Assembly (NCBI GenBank): GCA_030753365.1
Contig: JASMCJ010000008.1
Span: 928 to 64,927, forward strand
Reading direction: 5' to 3'
From: Candidatus Woesearchaeota archaeon
GTDB lineage: Archaea > Nanobdellota > Nanobdellia > Woesearchaeales > GCA-2687795
DNA: 64,000 nucleotides
A program made the translations under genes and the position numbers. Numbering within the stretch: position 1 is the first letter of the stretch; every line of letters begins with the position of its first letter. The notes under the pieces are model-generated. The model ran no database searches and was not told the origin of the DNA. It saw nothing but the letters and a program-made list of their open reading frames with translations. Shown here piece by piece: positions 1-53,452 of this stretch.

Positions 1-2056
1 ATGCGAGTGTGAAATTACAAATGGAGGAGTTGAAATATGTGATGGGTTAGATAATGATTGTGATGGAAATGTTGATGAAGGAGTGAAGACAACTTATTAT
101 AGGGATTCGGATGGAGATAATTATGGGGTTACTTCTGATACAACACTAGCATGCACAGTTCCTACTGGCTATGCTGAATTGAGTGGTGATTGTAATGATG
201 GTGATGCAGCGATTAATCCAGGAGCAACTGAAGCATGCGATGGAGTTGATAGTGATTGTGATGGTGTATTGGATGGCTCTGAAGGTATTACTCAACCATG
301 CGGAACAACTGATGTAGGATTGTGCAGGTATGGAGATGAGAGCTGCACTAATGCAGGAGGATGGACTGGCTGCGATTCTGTTGAACCAACAACAGAAGTG
401 TGCGATGGTTATGACAGGAATTGTGATGGTTATAAGAATAAAAATAATGCAGGCATTACTTTGACTAGTAGCACTAGCTGCGGCACTGATGCATGTGTAG
501 GTACAAAGACCAAAACATGCTCCACTTCCGGAGCATGGAGAGCTTATGGAGACTGCTCTACAAAGAATAATTATGCTGGAATTAAATGCGGGAAGTGTGA
601 TGCAAGCGGAACTCCTGTTTATGATGAGACAAGGGATAGTGATTGCGGCACAAAGAATTGTGATGGGTTAGATAACTGTTATGCTTATGGAAATGGATGT
701 GAAATAAGAGATTATGATGCTATACAAAAAAGATGCACTGGGTTAGGAAAATGTGAGGATCCTACTTGTTCAAGGTATTTAGCTTCCAACCAGAAAGTAG
801 ATTATTGTGATGGTGATTGGAGTGCATACTGGAGCTGTGGTGATGATGGGAATCTTCATAAATATCAGACATGTTATTCTGTAGGTTGTTCAAATGGAGC
901 CTGTACTAGTACCCCTCATGCGAATACTAATAATGATCATTTCACAAGCTGTGGGGGAAGGAGTTGTGTAGCACCAAAGACTTTTAACATGGATGCTGCC
1001 TGTGTACCTGCACCACCAGCATGCGGAGCAACTGGCACTGCTTGCAGCACTAATGCTGACTGCTGCAATCAAAGAGAGAATAAATGCAATTGGCTTGGGA
1101 AATGTGTTCAAAAAGCAGGATGTCCTTACATATATGCTTGTTCAGAAGAAGATTGCAGCTATGTTCATGATGCATTTGCGATGAGTTTCATGAAATCATT
1201 AGAAGAATACAGTTATCAAACATACAAAGGAAACTTAGATTATATAAAGATAACAGAACCTTTCGAAGAAGAAACATCATACATCAATGATTTCAGAGTG
1301 TATGGGATTGAATCAGACGCATTCTTCCTTCCAGAAGAGAATACTGGCGTATTGCACTCTATAGATGATCCTCAACCTCCTTATAAGGTTGAAGACGATT
1401 CATACTATTTCAAGAAGCAGGGAGATTATGCAAAGATAATAATCAATGCAAGACATACAGGCTTATCAATAAAGACGTTAACATACTTATTAAGCAATTT
1501 AGGAGCAAACTGGTTTGAATTTTATGATAAACAATTTTCATTACCAATAATAAACAAAGTATGGAGAACATCAATTAACCAGTACAATATGCATATATTA
1601 CTGAATGGAGAAGATGTTGGAAATATAAGAGGAAAATCAGATATTATAAATGAAACCGGAGAAGATTTCCTGATATACGCAAAAGTAAGTGATGATCACG
1701 ATTACATAAACATAACGCTTGATTATATAGAGGACTGGTATGTTATCAACAATGTTACAGTTGATTTCTCAGAAGATGTTCCATACAGTATAAAAGAAAT
1801 AGAAACTGATTTCCTTCCTTTCAACATTTCCACAAATGAAGAAAGAATAATCAATATTAAGAATAACTCTTATGATAATTACTTGTTTTCAATAAAGGGC
1901 TGGTACAAACCTTACTGGGCTTTAAAACAAAACCAAAGCTTTGAACAGAGCACAAAGCACCTTTTAACTGAAGTGTTGCCTGCAACAACACTCTTTGGAT
2001 CATGGAATTATGTTGAGAAAAACTTAGAATCTATTAATGATATAGTGAAGGAATAG
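1..2056 (+). CDS. Large Cys-rich secreted/surface protein, 5'-truncated by the window edge. The frame is open from nt 2 and the first in-window start (GTG at 83) is probably internal. The Cys-rich N-terminal part carries repeated C-x-DG-x-D-x-DCDG motifs; the ~290 aa C-terminal part has no Cys.
   Basis: ORF 83..2056 has no in-frame stop back to position 2 (..CECEITNGGVEICDGLDNDCDGNVDEGVKT..). Repeated motifs CDGVDSDCDG, CDGYDRNCDG and CDGLDNDCDG match the widespread putative metal-binding Cys-Asp repeat. Composition switches to Cys-free after about aa 370. Confidence 0.6.
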   Translation, partial: CECEITNGGVEICDGLDNDCDGNVDEGVKTTYYRDSDGDNYGVTSDTTLACTVPTGYAELSGDCNDGDAAINPGATEACDGVDSDCDGVLDGSEGITQPCGTTDVGLCRYGDESCTNAGGWTGCDSVEPTTEVCDGYDRNCDGYKNKNNAGITLTSSTSCGTDACVGTKTKTCSTSGAWRAYGDCSTKNNYAGIKCGKCDASGTPVYDETRDSDCGTKNCDGLDNCYAYGNGCEIRDYDAIQKRCTGLGKCEDPTCSRYLASNQKVDYCDGDWSAYWSCGDDGNLHKYQTCYSVGCSNGACTSTPHANTNNDHFTSCGGRSCVAPKTFNMDAACVPAPPACGATGTACSTNADCCNQRENKCNWLGKCVQKAGCPYIYACSEEDCSYVHDAFAMSFMKSLEEYSYQTYKGNLDYIKITEPFEEETSYINDFRVYGIESDAFFLPEENTGVLHSIDDPQPPYKVEDDSYYFKKQGDYAKIIINARHTGLSIKTLTYLLSNLGANWFEFYDKQFSLPIINKVWRTSINQYNMHILLNGEDVGNIRGKSDIINETGEDFLIYAKVSDDHDYINITLDYIEDWYVINNVTVDFSEDVPYSIKEIETDFLPFNISTNEERIINIKNNSYDNYLFSIKGWYKPYWALKQNQSFEQSTKHLLTEVLPATTLFGSWNYVEKNLESINDIVKE

Positions 2057-5282: not shown

Positions 5283-5322
5283 AAAAATCCCAATCACAGC
5301 AAGCTGTGAGGTACGAAAAAAC
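5283..5322. terminator. Terminator-like hairpin module HP1: A-tract, CCCAATCACAG-CAAG-CTGTGAGG stem-loop, then a second small hairpin AAAAACC-TTT-GGTTTTT. Member of the dispersed hairpin family.
   Basis: Stem CACAG/CTGTG with CAAG tetraloop, flanked by AAAAATCCC. Same architecture as the copies at 10715, 13601, 31921 and 53415, with compensatory stem changes. Confidence 0.45.
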
Positions 5323-5351: not shown

Positions 5352-5492
5352 TGTCAAAAGTCCGTGACCACCACCAGTCAATAGACTGGTGGCATGCTCG
5401 CCCACTCAAGTGGGCTCGGGTCACTCCCTCTTGAGCACATTTTATTCCACTTTGAACCACCAGTCTAGACTGGTGGAATAAAATGTTTTAAA
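5352..5492 (+). repeat. Structured repeat core, copy 1 (~141 nt) with nested perfect palindromes; near-identical to 18823..18962
   Basis: Contains CCACCAGTC-AATA-GACTGGTGG, GCCCAC-TCAA-GTGGGC and the perfect 20 nt palindrome CCACCAGTCTAGACTGGTGG. The outer pairs GTGACC/GGTCAC and CATTTTATTCCAC/GTGGAATAAAATG compete with the inner palindrome. Matches 18823..18962 with about 3 mismatches. Confidence 0.7.
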
Positions 5493-5507
5493 CTTCATAT
5501 TTTAATC

Positions 5508-5540
5508 CAACCGTTGCAAGCAACGGGGTATTAAACCCAT
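5508..5540. other. Hairpin module HP2 (CCAACCGTTG-CAAG-CAACGGGG then TATTAAACCC), enclosed by inverted repeat ACTTCAT/ATGAAGT
   Basis: Stem CGTTG/CAACG with CAAG tetraloop followed by GGGGTATTAAACCC. Homologous to GCCGATG-CAAG-CATCGGGGTATAAAACCC in the 99 nt repeat unit. Confidence 0.4.
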
Positions 5541-5579: not shown

Positions 5580-6425
5580 ATGGTTATGATTGATATTAGC
5601 GCGCTTAATATAAAACCTGAAATACTTATTAAGATAATCAGGGTTGCTGTAATGCTTGTTATTCTTGAGGTATTGTATCAGATTATTACAAAGAGTATTA
5701 AGAAAGTTTTGCTTAATAAGATTAAGAGCAAAAGACAAAGATCTAATGTTATTGTATTCTTTAATATATTAAGATATTTGTTTATATTCCTGATAATACT
5801 TATACTGATATTTACTTATACTGGCTCATGGACAGGGTTAGGGATTTCAGCAGGATTGTTGACTGCTGCATTGGGTTGGGCATTGCAAAGGCCAATTACA
5901 GGCATTGCTGCATGGATTATGGTTGTTACGAAGAAACCATTTAGTATTGGAGATAGGATTATTATTGGCTCTGTTAAGGGAGATGTGTCTGATATAACAT
6001 TGACGCATATTTATCTGAAAGAGATTGGTGGGACTGTTGGAGGAGAGGAGAGTTCAGGAAGGATAATATTGGTGCCTAATTCTGTGCTTTTTGAGCAGAA
6101 TATTGTTAATTATACGATGCAGGATGAGTTTATATTGAGCGAGGTTAGGACACTTGTGACTTATGAGTCTAATCTTGATGAGGCTGTTAAAATATGTAAG
6201 GAAGCTGCGGGAAAGGTTACAAGGGATGTTTTAAATGAAGTTCCAGAGAAACCTGTTGTAAGGACGTTTTTTAAGGATTCAGGGATTGTTGTTAAGGTGA
6301 GATTTTTTACAAAGACTGATGATAAAATAAAGGCGGAGAGTGATATTACACAAGCTATATTTGAGATGGTGAAAGAGTCTAAGAATGTTGATATTGCTTA
6401 TCCGCATATACAAATAGTTAAGTAA
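5580..6425 (+). CDS. mscS: Small-conductance mechanosensitive channel (MscS family)
   Basis: Three N-terminal TM helices followed by the MscS beta-domain region (GDRIIIGSVKGDVSDITLTHIYLKE..ILVPNS). Confidence 0.8.
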   Translation: MVMIDISALNIKPEILIKIIRVAVMLVILEVLYQIITKSIKKVLLNKIKSKRQRSNVIVFFNILRYLFIFLIILILIFTYTGSWTGLGISAGLLTAALGWALQRPITGIAAWIMVVTKKPFSIGDRIIIGSVKGDVSDITLTHIYLKEIGGTVGGEESSGRIILVPNSVLFEQNIVNYTMQDEFILSEVRTLVTYESNLDEAVKICKEAAGKVTRDVLNEVPEKPVVRTFFKDSGIVVKVRFFTKTDDKIKAESDITQAIFEMVKESKNVDIAYPHIQIVK

Positions 6426-7377: not shown

Positions 7378-8594
7378 AATTTGCGCATTTTGCTGACTGC
7401 CATATTGGATCATGGAGAGAGCCTAAGCTGAAAGAGATTAGTACAATGGCTTTTGTTAAGAGTGTTGATTTGTGTATTGAGAAGAGGGTTGATTTTGTTC
7501 TGATTGCAGGAGATTTGTTTAATACTTCATTGCCTTCTATTGATATGCTGAAGGAGACTGTTGTTAAGCTGAAGGAGCTTAAGGATAATAAGATTCCTGT
7601 GTATGTTATTGCTGGGTCGCATGATTATTCTCCTTCAGGGAAGACTATGCTGGATGTGCTTGAGAGCGCTGGATTGTTTGTTAATGTTGGGAAGGGTGAG
7701 GTTGTTGATGGCAAGATTAAATTGAATTTTACTGTTGATGAGAAGACTGGTGTTAAGATTACTGGCATGATGGGGAAGAAGGCTGGACTGGAGAGAGTGT
7801 ATTATGAGAATTTGATTAGAGAGAATCTTGAGAATGAAGAAGGGTATAAGATTTTCATGTTTCATTCTGCGATTACTGAGCTTAAGCCTAAAAGTATGGA
7901 GAAGATTGATTCCAGACCTTTGAGTTTTCTGCCTAAGAAGTTTGATTATTATGCGGGAGGGCATCCGCATTTTGTGTTTTCTGAGAAGATTGAGGGTTAT
8001 GGAACGATTGCTTATCCTGGACCGTTGTTTCCTAATAATTTTAAGGAACTTGAAGAGTTGAGCAAAGGAGGGTTTTTTATTGTTACAGATAATAATGTTG
8101 AGTGGCAGCCTGTGCAGATTTATAATACTGAACATATTAAGGTTGAGTGTGAGCATAGGAAGCCTGAAGATGTTGAAAGGGAAATTTTGGATGGTATTTC
8201 TAAGAAGGAGTTTATTAATACGATTGTTACTCTAAGATTGAGCGGGGTTTTGGAGTGTGGGAAGCCGTCTGATATTGATTTTAAGGAGATTTTTAAGAGG
8301 TTGTATGAGAAGTCTGCTTTTTTTGTTATGAAGAATACGAATGCTTTGAGCACTAAAGAGTTTGAGGAGGTTAAGGTGAGCGCTAGTTCTATAGAGGATA
8401 TTGAGGAAGATATTATTAAGGAGCATGCTGGCCAGATAGAGATTGAGGACTTTTCTCCTGAGCTGGTTACCAAAGAGCTGATGAATGTTATTAACAAGGA
8501 GAAGGATGAGGGCGAGAAGGTTGGTGATTTTGAGAAGAAGGTTAGCGATGAGGTTAAGAAGATTTTGGGTGTGGAGAAGGTGTTTGGAGGTTAA
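7374..8594 (+). CDS. Mre11/SbcD-family calcineurin-like metallophosphoesterase (putative DNA repair nuclease) with acidic C-terminal tail
   Basis: Motifs in Mre11 order: ADCHIG, AGDLFN, AGSHD, GGHPHF. N-terminus MKFAHFADCHIG resembles archaeal Mre11. No Rad50 partner is adjacent. Confidence 0.6.
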   Translation: MKFAHFADCHIGSWREPKLKEISTMAFVKSVDLCIEKRVDFVLIAGDLFNTSLPSIDMLKETVVKLKELKDNKIPVYVIAGSHDYSPSGKTMLDVLESAGLFVNVGKGEVVDGKIKLNFTVDEKTGVKITGMMGKKAGLERVYYENLIRENLENEEGYKIFMFHSAITELKPKSMEKIDSRPLSFLPKKFDYYAGGHPHFVFSEKIEGYGTIAYPGPLFPNNFKELEELSKGGFFIVTDNNVEWQPVQIYNTEHIKVECEHRKPEDVEREILDGISKKEFINTIVTLRLSGVLECGKPSDIDFKEIFKRLYEKSAFFVMKNTNALSTKEFEEVKVSASSIEDIEEDIIKEHAGQIEIEDFSPELVTKELMNVINKEKDEGEKVGDFEKKVSDEVKKILGVEKVFGG

Positions 8595-10552: not shown

Positions 10553-10714
10553 GGTTAAAAGGTGTTCAATTGAGAATTATCCCTTAGGTGTACTTTTCCA
10601 AAGATATGCTCCTATACCTGCAAAAACAAGTCCAACTATTATACTGATTATTTGACTCTTAGTATCAATTAAACTTGGTAGAAGAATTGGACCAATTATA
10701 CCTACAAGAAAAAT

Positions 10715-10813
10715 AAAAAATCCCAATCGCAGCAAGCTGCGGGGTATTTTTAGTATTTAGTTTGCGTATTAAGCCGATGCAAGCATCGGGGTATAAAACC
10801 CAAACTAAATAAT
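10715..10813. repeat. 99 nt structured repeat unit (HP1-spacer-HP2), 100% identical to 31921..32018
   Basis: Sequence ATAAAAAATCCCAATCGCAG-CAAG-CTGCGGGGTATTTTTAG ... TATTTAGTTTG CGTATTAA GCCGATG-CAAG-CATCGGGGTATAAAACCC CAAACTAAATA. HP1 is followed by a T-run. HP2 is enclosed by the 11 bp inverted repeat TATTTAGTTTG/CAAACTAAATA. Confidence 0.7.
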
Positions 10814-11167
10814 CAATAAAAATAATGAATGGTTATCAGACTTTATATCACAAGATAACAAAAAAACTGATAGAGATAAAGTTATTCATTTTACTATTCT
10901 GAATCTAGGAAATTTAAATGTAAATAAAAGAGAAGGAAAAATAAGAATCATTCTAAATTTAAAAAACAAAGATCTTGTTTTAAATAAATATATGAAAAAG
11001 AAACTTGAAAATTTGAAATTGTTTCTTAATAATTCCATCAATATACTTCTTGACTCTTAATGGAAATAGGAGCTTGCGTCATATTGTCGCTCCGTTTCAC
11101 TCCGTGACTTTTCCTTGCAGAAAAAAACATATAACAACCACTTTTAAAAGGAAATCAATAGAAGAAC

Positions 11168-13600: not shown

Positions 13601-13652
13601 GAAAATCCTAAAAATCGCTATCCCCACAGCAAGCTGTGAGGTATTGAACCCA
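13601..13652. terminator. Bidirectional terminator-like hairpin (family member) at a convergent gene junction
   Basis: AAAATCCTAAAAATCGCTATCCCCACAG-CAAG-CTGTGAGGTATTGAACCC; stem CACAG/CTGTG. Lies between the 3' ends of the KaiC-like gene (+) and a membrane protein gene (-). Confidence 0.45.
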
Positions 13653-18822: not shown

Positions 18823-18962
18823 TGTCAAAAGTCCGTGACCACCACCAGTCAATAGACTGGTAGCATGCTCGCCCACTCAAGTGGGCTCGGGTCACTCCCT
18901 CTTGAGCACATTTTATTCCACTTTGAACCACCAATCTAGACTGGTGGAATAAAATGTTTTAA
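18823..18962 (+). repeat. Structured repeat core, copy 2 (near-identical to 5352..5492). Its 3' end supplies the last 8 codons and the stop of the DHH gene on the opposite strand.
   Basis: Same ~140 nt as copy 1, with G to A (GACTGGTAGC) and G to A (CCACCAATCTAGA) changes that break two palindromes. Overlaps 18936..18962 of CDS 18936..20024. Confidence 0.7.
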
Positions 18963-31843: not shown

Positions 31844-31920
31844 TTTTTGCCTCCTTGAATTCGTTTGTTTTTAGTGTATTATATTATATGTGGTTATAAT
31901 AACCTTTTGATTATAATAAT

Positions 31921-32018
31921 AAAAAATCCCAATCGCAGCAAGCTGCGGGGTATTTTTAGTATTTAGTTTGCGTATTAAGCCGATGCAAGCATCGGGGTAT
32001 AAAACCCAAACTAAATAA
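31921..32018. repeat. 99 nt structured repeat unit, identical to 10715..10813; serves as the terminator region of the pentapeptide gene
   Basis: 100% identity to copy at 10715. On the minus strand the HP1 hairpin is followed by ATTTTTT immediately 3' of the stop at 32019. Confidence 0.7.
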
Positions 32019-32684
32019 TTAATATCCTGCCTGATAATAATTGCTTGGTCCTAGCCCATTATTACCCAAGAGAGGTCTTAAAGGATCAAATCCTCCGTAA
32101 AACATATATCCTTTTGGTTTTCTGCTATTTTCCTTTGTTGGAATTCCAAAGTAATTTATATTTACAGCATAAAGATTAGCGCTTCCTGTTATATTTGCCT
32201 GTCCAATATTTTGAACTTTGTACATGTTAGAACCTGAAAGATTTGTTTGCGATAAATAAGATCCGCCAAGATTTGAATATGCAAGGTTCGAGTTAGATAA
32301 ATTAGCTCCTCTAAAATCAGAGTTGCTTAAATTAACTCCACTAAAATCAACGCCTGACAGGTTTTTATTCCTGAAATTTGCTCCTTTTAACTCAACCTTT
32401 TCTTCTCTTCTCCTTGAAATGAAGTTGTTCCACAATTCCTTGTTCTCTGTTATGAATGAAACTAAACTCTCTATATCTCCTTCATTAATAAGGCTGATAA
32501 GCTCAACCAATGACTGCTTTTCTGGAATATCATTAAAGTTTTTATTTTGTGCGGTACCTTCCTCAAAATAAACCTCTGAAGTTTCATTATTCTTCTGGTC
32601 TGTTCGTTTCTTCTTCAATTTCACATTTGCAAGAGCCATCTTTACAACCACATACTTTACAGACTTTTTTACCTGCAAAATCAA
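32019..32684 (-). CDS. Pentapeptide-repeat protein (start possibly at the internal Met at ~32639)
   Basis: Tandem A(D/N)LSxx pentapeptide repeats (GANFRNKNLSGVDFSGVNLSNSDFRGANLSNSNLAYSNL). Confidence 0.65.
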   Translation of the reverse strand: MILQVKKSVKYVVVKMALANVKLKKKRTDQKNNETSEVYFEEGTAQNKNFNDIPEKQSLVELISLINEGDIESLVSFITENKELWNNFISRRREEKVELKGANFRNKNLSGVDFSGVNLSNSDFRGANLSNSNLAYSNLGGSYLSQTNLSGSNMYKVQNIGQANITGSANLYAVNINYFGIPTKENSRKPKGYMFYGGFDPLRPLLGNNGLGPSNYYQAGY

Positions 32685-32720
32685 AACATTCTTTTGTTTC
32701 TTTCATTATTACTACCTTTT

Positions 32721-33284
32721 TTATATTTTCCCAACAAGCTCCAAACTGGGTTTTAATGTTTTTTCTCCAGGTTGCCAGTTCATTGGACAAACTTGCCCTT
32801 TGTGTTCCCTTATGAATTTTGCTGCATTGATTTTTCTTAGCAATTCGTTAATGCTTCTGCCTATATCGTTGTCATGGAATTCGAATGCTTTGATAATGCC
32901 TTCGGGATTGATGATAAATGTCGCCCTTAGTGATAAGCCTTCTTCTTCAATGTATGTGCCATAACTTTTGCTTACTTTTCCTGTAGGGTCGGCTAACATA
33001 GGAAATGTTATTTTTTTAATAGTTTCTGAGTTGTCATGCCATGCTTTGTGCACAAATACAGTGTCAGTGCTTATGCTGATTATTTCTGCACCTATTTCTT
33101 TTATTTTGTTATAATTATCTGCCAGTTCTCCAAGTTCTGTGGGGCAGACAAATGTAAAGTCTGCAGGGTAGAAAAAAAGTATGATCCATTTGCCTTTGTA
33201 ATCGCTTAAACTGATTTTTTTTGTTTCATTATTAATTAAAGCATCTGATGTAAAGTCTGGTGCTTTTTCGTTTATTGTTACCAT
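32721..33284 (-). CDS. Peroxiredoxin (AhpC/TSA family)
   Basis: Peroxidatic Cys motif FTFVCPTE; 187 aa. Confidence 0.85.
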   Translation of the reverse strand: MVTINEKAPDFTSDALINNETKKISLSDYKGKWIILFFYPADFTFVCPTELGELADNYNKIKEIGAEIISISTDTVFVHKAWHDNSETIKKITFPMLADPTGKVSKSYGTYIEEEGLSLRATFIINPEGIIKAFEFHDNDIGRSINELLRKINAAKFIREHKGQVCPMNWQPGEKTLKPSLELVGKI

Positions 33285-33449: not shown

Positions 33450-33610
33450 TGTCAAGAACCACCCATCACAGATGGGTGGCATGAAGGATTTACGCCTAGA
33501 GCCATCCCATTTTTCTTGGTGGTTCTTGAGCATGCTCAGAAATATAACACCTTCCAAAACTGGATTGTGGACTTCGTCCACTGGTTATAAAACCAGTGGT
33601 ATATTTCTGA
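33450..33610 (+). repeat. Diverged third member of the structured repeat family (hairpins preserved by compensatory substitutions)
   Basis: Hairpin CCACCCATC-ACA-GATGGGTGG (copy 1 has CCACCAGTC-AATA-GACTGGTGG). Shared GGTGGCATG and CTTGAGCA blocks. Hairpin CCACTGGTT-ATAAAA-AACCAGTGG (copy 1 has CCACCAGTCTAGACTGGTGG). Outer stem CAAGAACCACC/GGTGGTTCTTG. Confidence 0.55.
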
Positions 33611-33614
33611 CATA

Positions 33615-33752
33615 TTAACCCATTGTGTATTTCCATAAATCATGCTGGATTTGGTCAACTATGTTGGTATAATCAAACATGTTGTCAAACTTTGTTTCCA
33701 TTGAATCTTCCTCATAGCATTTGCCTTTACGGCAGATAATTTTCTGGTTCAT
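33615..33752 (-). CDS. Candidate small protein (45 aa) with GGTGA ribosome-binding site
   Basis: MNQKIICRKGKCYEEDSMETKFDNMFDYTNIVDQIQHDLWKYTMG, with GGTGAAATAA directly before the ATG. Below the 60 aa ORF-track cutoff and unsupported by homology. Confidence 0.25.
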   Translation of the reverse strand: MNQKIICRKGKCYEEDSMETKFDNMFDYTNIVDQIQHDLWKYTMG

Positions 33753-52391: not shown

Positions 52392-53417
52392 TTGGAAAAA
52401 GATATATTTTTAAAATACGCTAGGTTTACAAATCTTAAGATGAAAAAGTATGATGTTTATGCAATTGGTAATGCATTGATGGATGTTTATACTAAAGTGG
52501 AGAATGAGAAATTAGTAGAGATTAATCTAAAGAAAGGGGATATGCATCTTGTTGATGAGGAACAGTCAAAAAGGTTTTTTGAAGGTGTTAAAGATAATAT
52601 ATTAAAGACTGGGCCTGGTGGCTCTTCTGTGAATGTTGCTGCTGGTGTTGCTATGTTAGGTGGTAGTGTAGCGTTCTGCGGGGTTGTAGGAAATGATGAA
52701 CAAGGTAGAATGTTTGAGGATATCCTTGTTAAAGAGGGAGTTATTGCTAACCTTGCTAAGAGCAGCAAGATGACTGGGAATGTTATTTCGTTTATTACAG
52801 ACGATAGTGAGAGGACATTTGCAACTCATCTGGGGGCGGCTCTCGAGCTGAAGAAGGAAGATGTTAGTGAAGAGGATATTATCGCAAGTAAGGTTCTTCA
52901 TATAGAGGCATATCAATTGGAGGATCCTAAGCTTAAAGAGGTTTGTTTTCATGCAATGGATGTTGCTAAGAGTAATGGTGTTAAAGTTTCTATTGATTTG
53001 AGCGACCCTGCATTGATTATGAGGAATCTTGAAGAGTTTAAGAAGGTTGTTAAGGATTATGCAGATATTGTTTTTGCTAATGAGGAAGAGGCTAAGGCGT
53101 TTACTGGTTTAGAGCCTGAAGAGGCATTGCATAAGATTGCTGAGGATGCTGAGGATGCTGTTGTTAAGTTGGGGAGCAAAGGTTCTATTATTAAGAATGG
53201 AGAAGATGTTTTTAAGATTGAGGCTGTTGAAGCTAATGCTATTGATACTACTGGGGCAGGTGATAGTTTTGCTGCAGGGTTCCTTTATGGATTTTGCAAT
53301 GAGTTGGGGATAGAAAAGTCAGGGAAGCTTGGCTCTTTTCTTGGAAGCAAGGTTGTGGAAGAGATTGGCACAAGGATTGAACAAGATGTTAAAGAGGAGA
53401 TTGAGCAATTAAAATAA
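52392..53417 (+). CDS. PfkB-family carbohydrate/nucleoside kinase (ribokinase superfamily)
   Basis: N-terminal GG motif region and C-terminal DTTGAGDSFAAGFLYG anion-hole motif. Confidence 0.75.
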   Translation: MEKDIFLKYARFTNLKMKKYDVYAIGNALMDVYTKVENEKLVEINLKKGDMHLVDEEQSKRFFEGVKDNILKTGPGGSSVNVAAGVAMLGGSVAFCGVVGNDEQGRMFEDILVKEGVIANLAKSSKMTGNVISFITDDSERTFATHLGAALELKKEDVSEEDIIASKVLHIEAYQLEDPKLKEVCFHAMDVAKSNGVKVSIDLSDPALIMRNLEEFKKVVKDYADIVFANEEEAKAFTGLEPEEALHKIAEDAEDAVVKLGSKGSIIKNGEDVFKIEAVEANAIDTTGAGDSFAAGFLYGFCNELGIEKSGKLGSFLGSKVVEEIGTRIEQDVKEEIEQLK

Positions 53418-53452
53418 AAATCCCAACCATCCAAAAGGATGGGGTATTTTTA
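53415..53452. terminator. Terminator-like hairpin (family member) immediately after the PfkB kinase stop
   Basis: AAAATAAAAATCCCAACCATCC-AAAA-GGATGGGGTATTTTTAGT; stem CCATCC/GGATGG then T-run. Shares the GGGGTATTTTTAGT tail with the 99 nt unit. Confidence 0.5.

Follow-up and report, generated by a model that had tools for sequence, protein, structure and literature searches.

What is the strongly folding, multi-hairpin repeat that occurs three times in a 64,000-nt stretch of a Candidatus Woesearchaeota archaeon genome (assembly GCA_030753365.1, contig JASMCJ010000008.1, positions 928 to 64,927; hereafter the window), and why do its hairpins change by compensatory substitutions? The original prediction, made on the third copy (copy 3), proposed either a functional RNA or a protein-recognized DNA hairpin such as a transposon end. 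Our analysis indicates that the element is a non-autonomous miniature inverted-repeat transposable element (MITE) derived from an insertion sequence (IS) of the IS200 group (IS200/IS605 family) circulating in Woesearchaeota and Nanoarchaeota, a reading to which we give a probability of about 0.88.

The layout of the element is constant. It starts with TGTCAAGAACCACC, hairpin 1 (H1; CCACCnGTC-loop-GACnGGTGG), CATG, a variable segment and GGTGGTTCTTGA, which closes the outer stem P1. GCAYRC follows, then a long stem P2 around one to three hairpins, the last of which (hairpin 3, H3) resembles H1, and finally a short tail. H1 and H3 were found in all full copies, and the outer stem, the shared blocks and both hairpins first noticed in copy 3 are all present there (Table 1). 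By the IS200/IS605 convention, the top strand of the element is the minus strand of the window, the left end (LE), formed by the H3 side, adjoins the target TTNAW, and the right end (RE) consists of H1 and then TTCTTGACA.

Precise insertion beside a one-sided target motif

The site of copy 3 was compared with that of a sister species (L091), in which the neighboring AsnC-type regulator is 96% identical and the neighboring 45-aa open reading frame (ORF) 100% identical. This site is empty and reads GCTGCTTATAGTTAAAT^ATTAACCCATAG. The window reads ..GTTAAA[TGTCAAGAA...TTTCTGACA]TATTAACCCATTG at the same place, a clean 163-nt insert with a boundary ambiguity of 1 nt, and the comparison fixes the boundaries of copy 3 to +/-1 nt. 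L091 has a copy of its own about 50 nt from the copy 3 site, which is missing in the window. The site of copy 2 is likewise empty in three sister species (DHH protein 81, 75 and 70% identical), in which the DHH gene and a gene for a 180-aa protein converge and overlap by 4–11 nt. In the window, these genes are parted by the 134-nt copy 2, which lies between ..TTC and TTTTAA; the DHH gene takes its last eight codons and its stop from it (element-encoded C-terminus LKHFIPPV). No target-site duplication was found at the three compared sites.

A sequence logo of the flank beyond the H3 side was made from 36 copies and gave T-W-T-N-A-A, with the two T at 35/36 and 36/36 and the two A at 31/36 and 35/36; the other flank was random. 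The N of the motif varies among near-identical copies of one genome (TTTAAA, TTTGAA and TTTCAA). Because of this variation, and because the motif stands in the empty sites, TWTNAA is target DNA and not part of the element.

Population contigs were retrieved via four flanking proteins. No presence/absence variation was found among them, and all three window copies were fixed in every contig. The only population variants in copy 3 were two single-nucleotide polymorphisms, A33595C in H3 and T33606C in P2, in the minority contigs L050/L059 and L054/L064. Each breaks one base pair, as might be seen in a fixed copy undergoing neutral decay. In one contig (L078; ERZ4231626 NODE_878, 25 kb), the left flank of copy 2, with the 180-aa gene, runs into the right flank of copy 1, with the MscS and Na/Ca-exchanger genes; the normal copy 2 junction also occurs in this contig, 13.5 kb further on. 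The joined flanks reflect either duplication in tandem, or circle formation, of the intervening 13.5-kb segment via the direct 134-nt copies, or an assembler looping through the repeat.

Full-length copies carrying a Y1 transposase

A metagenome scan with the TGTCA-side end and H1 alone returned more than 120 stretches, most of which were MITEs with small variations or nested hairpin modules. At the loci L138, L157, L161, L171 and L198, and partly at L116 and L199, the end made of TGTCAAGAACCACC, the hairpin and GGTGGCATG is followed by an ORF of 133–154 aa on the opposite strand. In the first five, the ORF stops 37–51 nt from the TGTCA terminus, and the H1 hairpin of the MITEs recurs 37–51 nt downstream of the stop. 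Four of these proteins were scanned against Pfam and matched Y1_Tnp (E 1e-13 to 1e-23); those of L138, L161 and L198 scored 63–84 bits with NCBIfam transpos_IS200 (cut-off 55). They show an HUH motif (e.g. DHVHF and DHIHM) and a Y-I-x-x-Q motif; the L198 protein has 148 aa.

The full-length IS copies were delimited at 586–680 bp, and their tnpA gene reads from LE to RE. At the far end they have an H3-like hairpin (e.g. CCACTAGTC-AAA-GACTAGTGG), a tail of 9–12 nt and then TTTAAA, TATAAA or TTAAAT. The closing strands of P1 and P2 are absent from them. Transposase homologues lie mostly on contigs shorter than 3 kb, as expected of a multi-copy IS that breaks assemblies. The transposase-bearing copies make up 7 of about 120 metagenome matches, giving a MITE-to-IS ratio of about 15 to 1. 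The idea that the hairpins mark a transposon end is thereby upheld, as the hairpin-bearing end flanks a Y1 transposase in the IS copies and sister species lack the insertion at the sites of copies 3 and 2.

The same transposases allow us to weigh a REPIN/RAYT-like system, in which a domesticated, single-copy and vertically inherited Y1 transposase would sustain inverted hairpin doublets. MITE copies do far outnumber transposase-bearing ones, and one transposase has a weak REP_Tyr_transpos match (33 bits). The element also consists of two hairpin-bearing halves in inverted orientation, and the fit of the reverse strand of copy 3 to the covariance model of the family (55 bits) shows that these halves are inverted relatives. 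Like REPINs, the elements are inverted, hairpin-forming doublets with compensatory changes, spread by a Y1 transposase of the same superfamily. However, the three transposases scanned with NCBIfam pass the IS200 equivalog cut-off and stay far below the RAYT cut-off of 80 bits, and the gene lies inside a compact unit whose LE/RE layout and target match those of the MITE. The homologues on many IS-sized contigs suggest a multi-copy IS, and the element sequences inspected, without a dedicated search, showed no GTAG/CGTC REP tag. REPIN/RAYT systems (PMC3116915) differ from this family in its IS200-scoring transposases, distinct LE and RE, one-sided target and archaeal hosts. We consider a REPIN/RAYT-like origin very unlikely.

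Covariation of the stems

Base pairing was evaluated on two alignments, with slid pairing partners as the control. In a plain MAFFT alignment of 28 copies, 88.2% of the pair cells held standard pairs, against 35–43% for slid partners, and changes on both sides of a pair were found in 128 cells, against 20–34. In an alignment of 72 distinct, independent metagenome copies fitted to the covariance model, 96.8% of the cells were paired, against 29–42%, with both-side changes in 246 cells, against 9–36. Compensatory change was seen at 13 of 14 pairs in P2 and at 7 of 9 pairs in H3; P1 was almost invariant, and the H1 stem also covaries across the family. Thus, the compensatory changes originally reported from three copies hold on both large alignments. 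The covariation of P1 and P2 might in part derive from the way in which MITE subfamilies arose repeatedly from the parent IS, and not from selection for pairing.

RNA folds of the copies had z-scores of −6.6 to −8.3 on either strand relative to shuffled sequence, and the DNA fold had a z-score of −6.6. The outer stem and H1, both listed in the original prediction, share CCACC, so that both cannot form fully at the same time; in the minimum-energy fold, the outer stem is retained and GATGGGTGGC is paired with GCCATCCCAT.

Such stable folds and covarying stems could point to structured non-coding RNA genes or cis-regulatory RNAs, with the RNA fold as the functional unit, as could the conserved unpaired blocks and the occurrence of two subfamilies together in two distant genomes (the window and the groundwater genome L015). 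Several results stand against it. Rfam 15 gave no family match, either at the gathering threshold over the whole window or at E <= 10 in both element regions, where only sub-threshold chance matches to miRNA, CRISPR-DR and snoRNA models appeared. On the modelled strand, G-U pairs (26) were not favoured over A-C mismatches (42), as expected if single copies decay neutrally and not if a transcript is under selection. The four orientations to the flanking genes all occur (11, 11, 7 and 5 cases), as in random placement, and a tally of left flanks upstream of TGTCA showed no conservation beyond the element. Moreover, presence and absence differ precisely between sister species, and the same end belongs to a transposase-bearing IS. 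We regard the RNA reading as still less probable than the REPIN/RAYT-like one, and of the two options in the original prediction the protein-recognized transposon end is the one retained. Clustering of the ORFs around 39 copies revealed no recurring neighbor protein, and a tRNA/tmRNA scan found nothing. H/ACA or C/D small RNAs were rejected, since the ACA and CUGA motifs covary away, and hammerhead-type ribozymes were considered and dropped.

Proposed target recognition and mechanism

IS608 and ISDra2 are mobilized by a Y1 transposase dimer that binds two hairpins on single-stranded DNA; a single-stranded circle is cut out and joined 3′ of the target motif, and no target duplication is left. 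Their cleavage sites are reportedly recognized by pairing with bases at the hairpin foot (Barabas et al. 2008, Guynet et al. 2009); in IS608, TTAC is said to be read by AAAG (Barabas et al. 2008). The bases beside the hairpin foot were compared with the target. Target position 2 is complementary to the base adjacent to the H3 foot in 98 of 100 copies, as well as in 36 of 37 distinct tails; complementarity stood at 96% against 51% after shuffling, and none of 2000 shuffles scored as high as the real pairs. At the position after it, an A:T pair is invariant; for example, AATTT occurs with TTAAA and TATTT with ATAAA. In the aligned sequences, this foot-base covariation appears to resemble the guide/cleavage-site rule of IS608. 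In IS608-type elements, the RE guide sequence lies where the GGTGGCATG block is found here, and this block may act as a guide by analogy. TnpA of IS608 and ISDra2 recognises subterminal secondary structures (PMC6006769).

We propose that a Y1 transposase acting in trans would bind the single-stranded top strand (the window minus strand) through H3 in the left end and H1 in the right end. The left end would be cut 3′ of the target TTNAW and the right end after ..TTGACA, and each cleavage site would be read via base pairing with the bases beside the hairpin foot. A single-stranded circle would then be excised and pasted 3′ of another TTNAW. The GGTGGCATG block would comprise the RE hairpin foot and the flanking guide position, and TGTCAAG the RE tail with its cleavage point. 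Because the cleavage sites would be read beside the foot, the hairpins would have to stay paired, which would explain the compensatory changes and the conservation of GGTGGCATG and TGTCAAG. The window family fits the IS608/ISDra2-type model in its subterminal hairpins, one-sided target, insertion without duplication and linked Y1 transposase, and we infer by analogy the steps that go beyond the anatomy of the sequence.

With the IS200 group of IS200/IS605, the family shares a Y1 HUH transposase of about 150 aa with HUH and Y-I-x-x-Q motifs, subterminal hairpins at both ends, a fixed motif of 5–6 nt at the LE side without target duplication, a gene running from LE to RE, and an LE-foot base complementary to the target. 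It differs in its gene-less window copies, in the inverted-repeat tails of the canonical subfamily, in its target TTNAW(A) and in its DPANN host. Palindrome-associated transposable elements (PATEs) are MITE-like IS200/IS605 derivatives of haloarchaea and cyanobacteria. Like the present element, they are short, non-coding and multi-copy, keep only the structured IS200/IS605 ends and depend on a transposase in trans. PATEs derive from IS1341-type (tnpB) elements, whereas this family derives from a tnpA-only IS200-type element and has the added internal complements of P1 and P2.

The centre of the MITE, GGTGGTTCTTGA-GCATGC-TCAGAAAT.., consists of inverted copies of both tails, and the predicted single-strand fold has two adjacent stem-loops with both termini at their bases. 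P1 and P2 may in this way bring the two cleavage sites together. They could represent a MITE-specific 'cis-synapsis' device that lets a gene-less element compete for a scarce transposase, which would explain the roughly 15:1 excess of MITEs; in a variant of this idea, read-through transcripts would act as RNA, as terminators or stabilisers at gene ends. We consider this proposal, with its variant, speculative and rather unlikely.

Several points weigh against derivation from an IS200-group element. First, once folded, P1 and P2 would hide the tails from the transposase, which has to read them; this also counts against cis-synapsis. Second, the tails of the canonical subfamily are inverted repeats (TGTCAAGAA / TTCTGACA), which is atypical of IS200/IS605 ends; neither the other subfamilies (copies 1 and 2; ..CCGATG types) nor the full-length IS copies have such tails. 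Third, target positions 3–5 are at the shuffle level, and only one position covaries with the guide. Fourth, the 64-kb window yielded no Y1 transposase gene, with no transposase in Pfam scans of 19 of its ORFs, and no such gene was linked to the window species. Finally, the full-length IS copies were delimited at their left ends by similarity to the MITEs and not from empty sites, and the three window copies, fixed in every population contig retrieved, may be inactive in this genome today.

The inverted tails raise a third alternative, a classical MITE with terminal inverted repeats (TIRs), moved by a DDE transposase that would bind TGTCAAGAA / TTCTGACA in double-stranded DNA. The fit of the reverse strand of copy 3 to the model and the MITE-typical size, AT-rich target and intergenic site agree with this, but the three compared sites lack a target-site duplication, the target motif stands on one side only, the subfamilies of copies 1/2 and of the ..CCGATG type have no inverted tails, and the linked gene encodes a Y1 HUH and not a DDE transposase, which makes it the least probable reading that we weighed. 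The Correia, ERIC and RUP MITEs are also small, intergenic and strongly folding, are often found at gene ends and may rewrite gene termini, as copy 2 does at the DHH gene; they have TIRs, target duplications (TA for Correia) and DDE partners, none of which occurs in this family. Integron attC sites (no R'/R'' consensus and no cassette array), the template and variable repeats of a diversity-generating retroelement (copies 1 and 2 differ by just two G>A changes) and Helitron or IS91 ends were also considered and dropped.

Distribution and subfamilies

A gapped pattern built from the three blocks common to the window copies was run on contigs representing one genome per species and gave 44 loci. 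Of these, 39 were archaeal and belonged to Woesearchaeota, Nanoarchaeota, Pacearchaeota or metagenome-assembled genomes (MAGs) labelled Methanosarcinales, some of which labels may be unreliable. The five bacterial loci were chance matches that the covariance model fails to recognise. In total, about 40 copies were found in about 25 Woesearchaeota/Nanoarchaeota MAGs; several genomes were multi-copy, several copies lay at contig ends, and one 784-kb metagenome contig, Ga0210057_1000003, holds at least ten copies. No isolated terminal motif was above chance in the first 44 loci, and a scan of viral contigs for the element gave no match. A census of prokaryotic MITEs includes a Woesearchaea genome with 105 MITEs per Mb (PMC11602168). 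Our full-text literature search found no description of this family, which is an IS200-type element with a MITE of a known kind and not a new RNA class.

The covariance model finds exactly three copies in the window (144.5, 73.3 and 62.8 bits). Judged by sequence comparison across the family, copy 3 is not the diverged member that it was first taken for; it represents the canonical form, which recurs in dozens of genomes, with copies 1 and 2 as a sub-variant. These two copies carry CCACCAGTC..GACTGGTGG and are 99% identical over 140 nt, with a two-base difference inside the 134-nt element. The features of copy 3 and the positions of copies 1 and 2 are summarized in Table 1.

Table 1 Features of the three element copies in the window.
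Feature	Positions	Strand	Description
Copy 3	33450..33612	minus	Complete 163-nt non-coding element (MITE), TGTCAAGAA...TTTCTGACA; covariance model 144.5 bits; sister empty site GTTAAAT^ATTAAC
RE tail	33450..33458	minus	Top strand TTCTTGACA, stopping at the putative RE cleavage point; invariant in all copies and in transposase-bearing IS copies
H1, RE subterminal palindrome	33459..33479	minus	CCACCCATC-ACA-GATGGGTGG; arms 33459-33467/33471-33479; stem covaries across the family
GGTGGCATG block	33475..33483	minus	Top strand gives CATG directly 5′ of the RE hairpin foot; conserved in window copies 1, 2 and 3 and in IS copies
P1, 5′ strand	33452-33463		TCAAGAACCACC; pairs with GGTGGTTCTTGA at 33518-33529
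P1, 3′ strand	33518..33529	minus	GGTGGTTCTTGA, internal complement of the RE tail; absent from full-length IS copies
CTTGAGCA block	33525-33532		Seen in the sequence
Central palindrome	33527..33538	none	TGAGCATGCTCA, joins the two domains; seen directly; conserved in canonical copies
P2, 5′ strand	33536..33546	minus	TCAGAAATATA, internal complement of the LE tail; pairs with 33600-33610
H3, LE subterminal palindrome	33578..33599	minus	CCACTGGTT-ATAA-AACCAGTGG; arms 33578-33586/33591-33599; matching hairpin at the far end of IS copies
LE tail	33600..33612	minus	TATATTTCTGACA; first base, beside the hairpin foot, covaries with the target
Target motif	33613..33618	none	TATTAA (family consensus TWTNAA); host DNA; present in the L091 empty site; includes the TAA stop of the 45-aa ORF
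Copy 1	5352..5485	minus	134-nt sub-variant; P1 is CAAAAG..GTGACC / GGTCAC..CTCTTG; followed by target TTTTAA 5486-5491
Copy 2	18823..18956	minus	134 nt; between convergent genes; followed by target TTTTAA 18957-18962

The sub-variant of copies 1 and 2 also occurs at L015:5822-5967. L015, a groundwater Woesearchaeota MAG of 50% GC, holds both subfamilies of the 36% GC marine window (5822-5967 and 7585-7742). In its copy resembling copies 1/2, P1b has changed from GTGACC/GGTCAC to GCAGCC/GGCTGC; domain B of its other copy is closely like that of copy 3 in a by-eye comparison. The presence of both subfamilies in L015 and the window suggests old coexisting lineages or horizontal spread. An apparent loss of domain B in L030, L040, L012 and L027 proved to be longer or nested interiors, and the paired copies in L012, L044 and L015 have ordinary genes between them.

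Extra hairpin modules of the form TCA(A/G)(A/G)AA..loop..TT(C/T)(C/T)TGA were found in tandem arrays in L100, L104, L113, L118, L163, L186, L203, L211 and L214. The arrays lie within or beside the P1 3′ strand or the centre, e.g. GGTTC[CCAAGAAAATCC..GGATTTTCTGGG CCAGAAAATGC..GCATTTTCTTGG]CTTGAGCA, and could be nested insertions or module duplications.

These results explain a conspicuous, strongly folding DPANN repeat that is easily mistaken for a new RNA class, and such elements should be masked in screens for non-coding RNA. They define an IS200-type element and MITE pair, with its ends, target motif and covarying guide base, for a lineage without cultured genetics, and the covariation of target and guide across natural subfamilies provides a comparative data set on the target choice of HUH transposases. 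The small genomes of the Woesearchaeota lineage tolerate ten or more copies per megabase. The elements break assemblies, as reflected by the copies at contig ends, rewrite gene termini such as that of the DHH protein, and provide substrates for recombination, of which the population contig with the joined flanks of copies 2 and 1 may be an example.

The adjacent 45-aa ORF and other repeats in the window

The 45-aa ORF (33615–33752, minus strand; MNQKIICRKGKCYEED...) lies divergently to the gene for the AsnC-type regulator. Its identity is 100% to the version in one sister species and 67% to that in a third species, with a C-x4-C and a DYTNIVDxIQHDLWKY core conserved; it had no Pfam match. The ORF does end beside the element, as first noted, with its stop in TATTAA and the last base of the element at 33612. 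It is kept in three species with or without the element, and is a real conserved small gene. Its adjacency to copy 3 is incidental, because the ORF is conserved regardless of the element, which landed in the TATTAA holding its stop codon.

The region beside the ORF also differs between the window (32019–33284) and L091 (1692–2362). In the window, the 45-aa ORF and a glutaredoxin gene are separated by a block of peroxiredoxin and pentapeptide-repeat genes, which are missing at that position in L091; L091 has its own MITE copy in place of this block. The window block has copy 3 on one side and one copy of a 110-nt repeat on the other.

A second, unrelated hairpin repeat was found at 5283–5313, 5500–5540, 10716–10746, 13613–13643, 31922–31952 and 53416–53446. 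It has conserved flanks and a variable stem, AAAAATCCCAAT-[stem]-GCAAGC-[stem']-GGGTA, and mostly lies just past the 3′ ends of genes. Two of its copies are within the 110-nt repeat (10709–10818 and 31915–32024, 98% identical), which also contains a hairpin with a 23-bp stem. This second repeat could represent terminators or another MITE. At window positions 23–430, direct repeats with a period of 165–198 nt encode a Cys-/Asp-rich unit (..CDG.D.DCDG..) at the start of a 657-aa ORF (83–2056).

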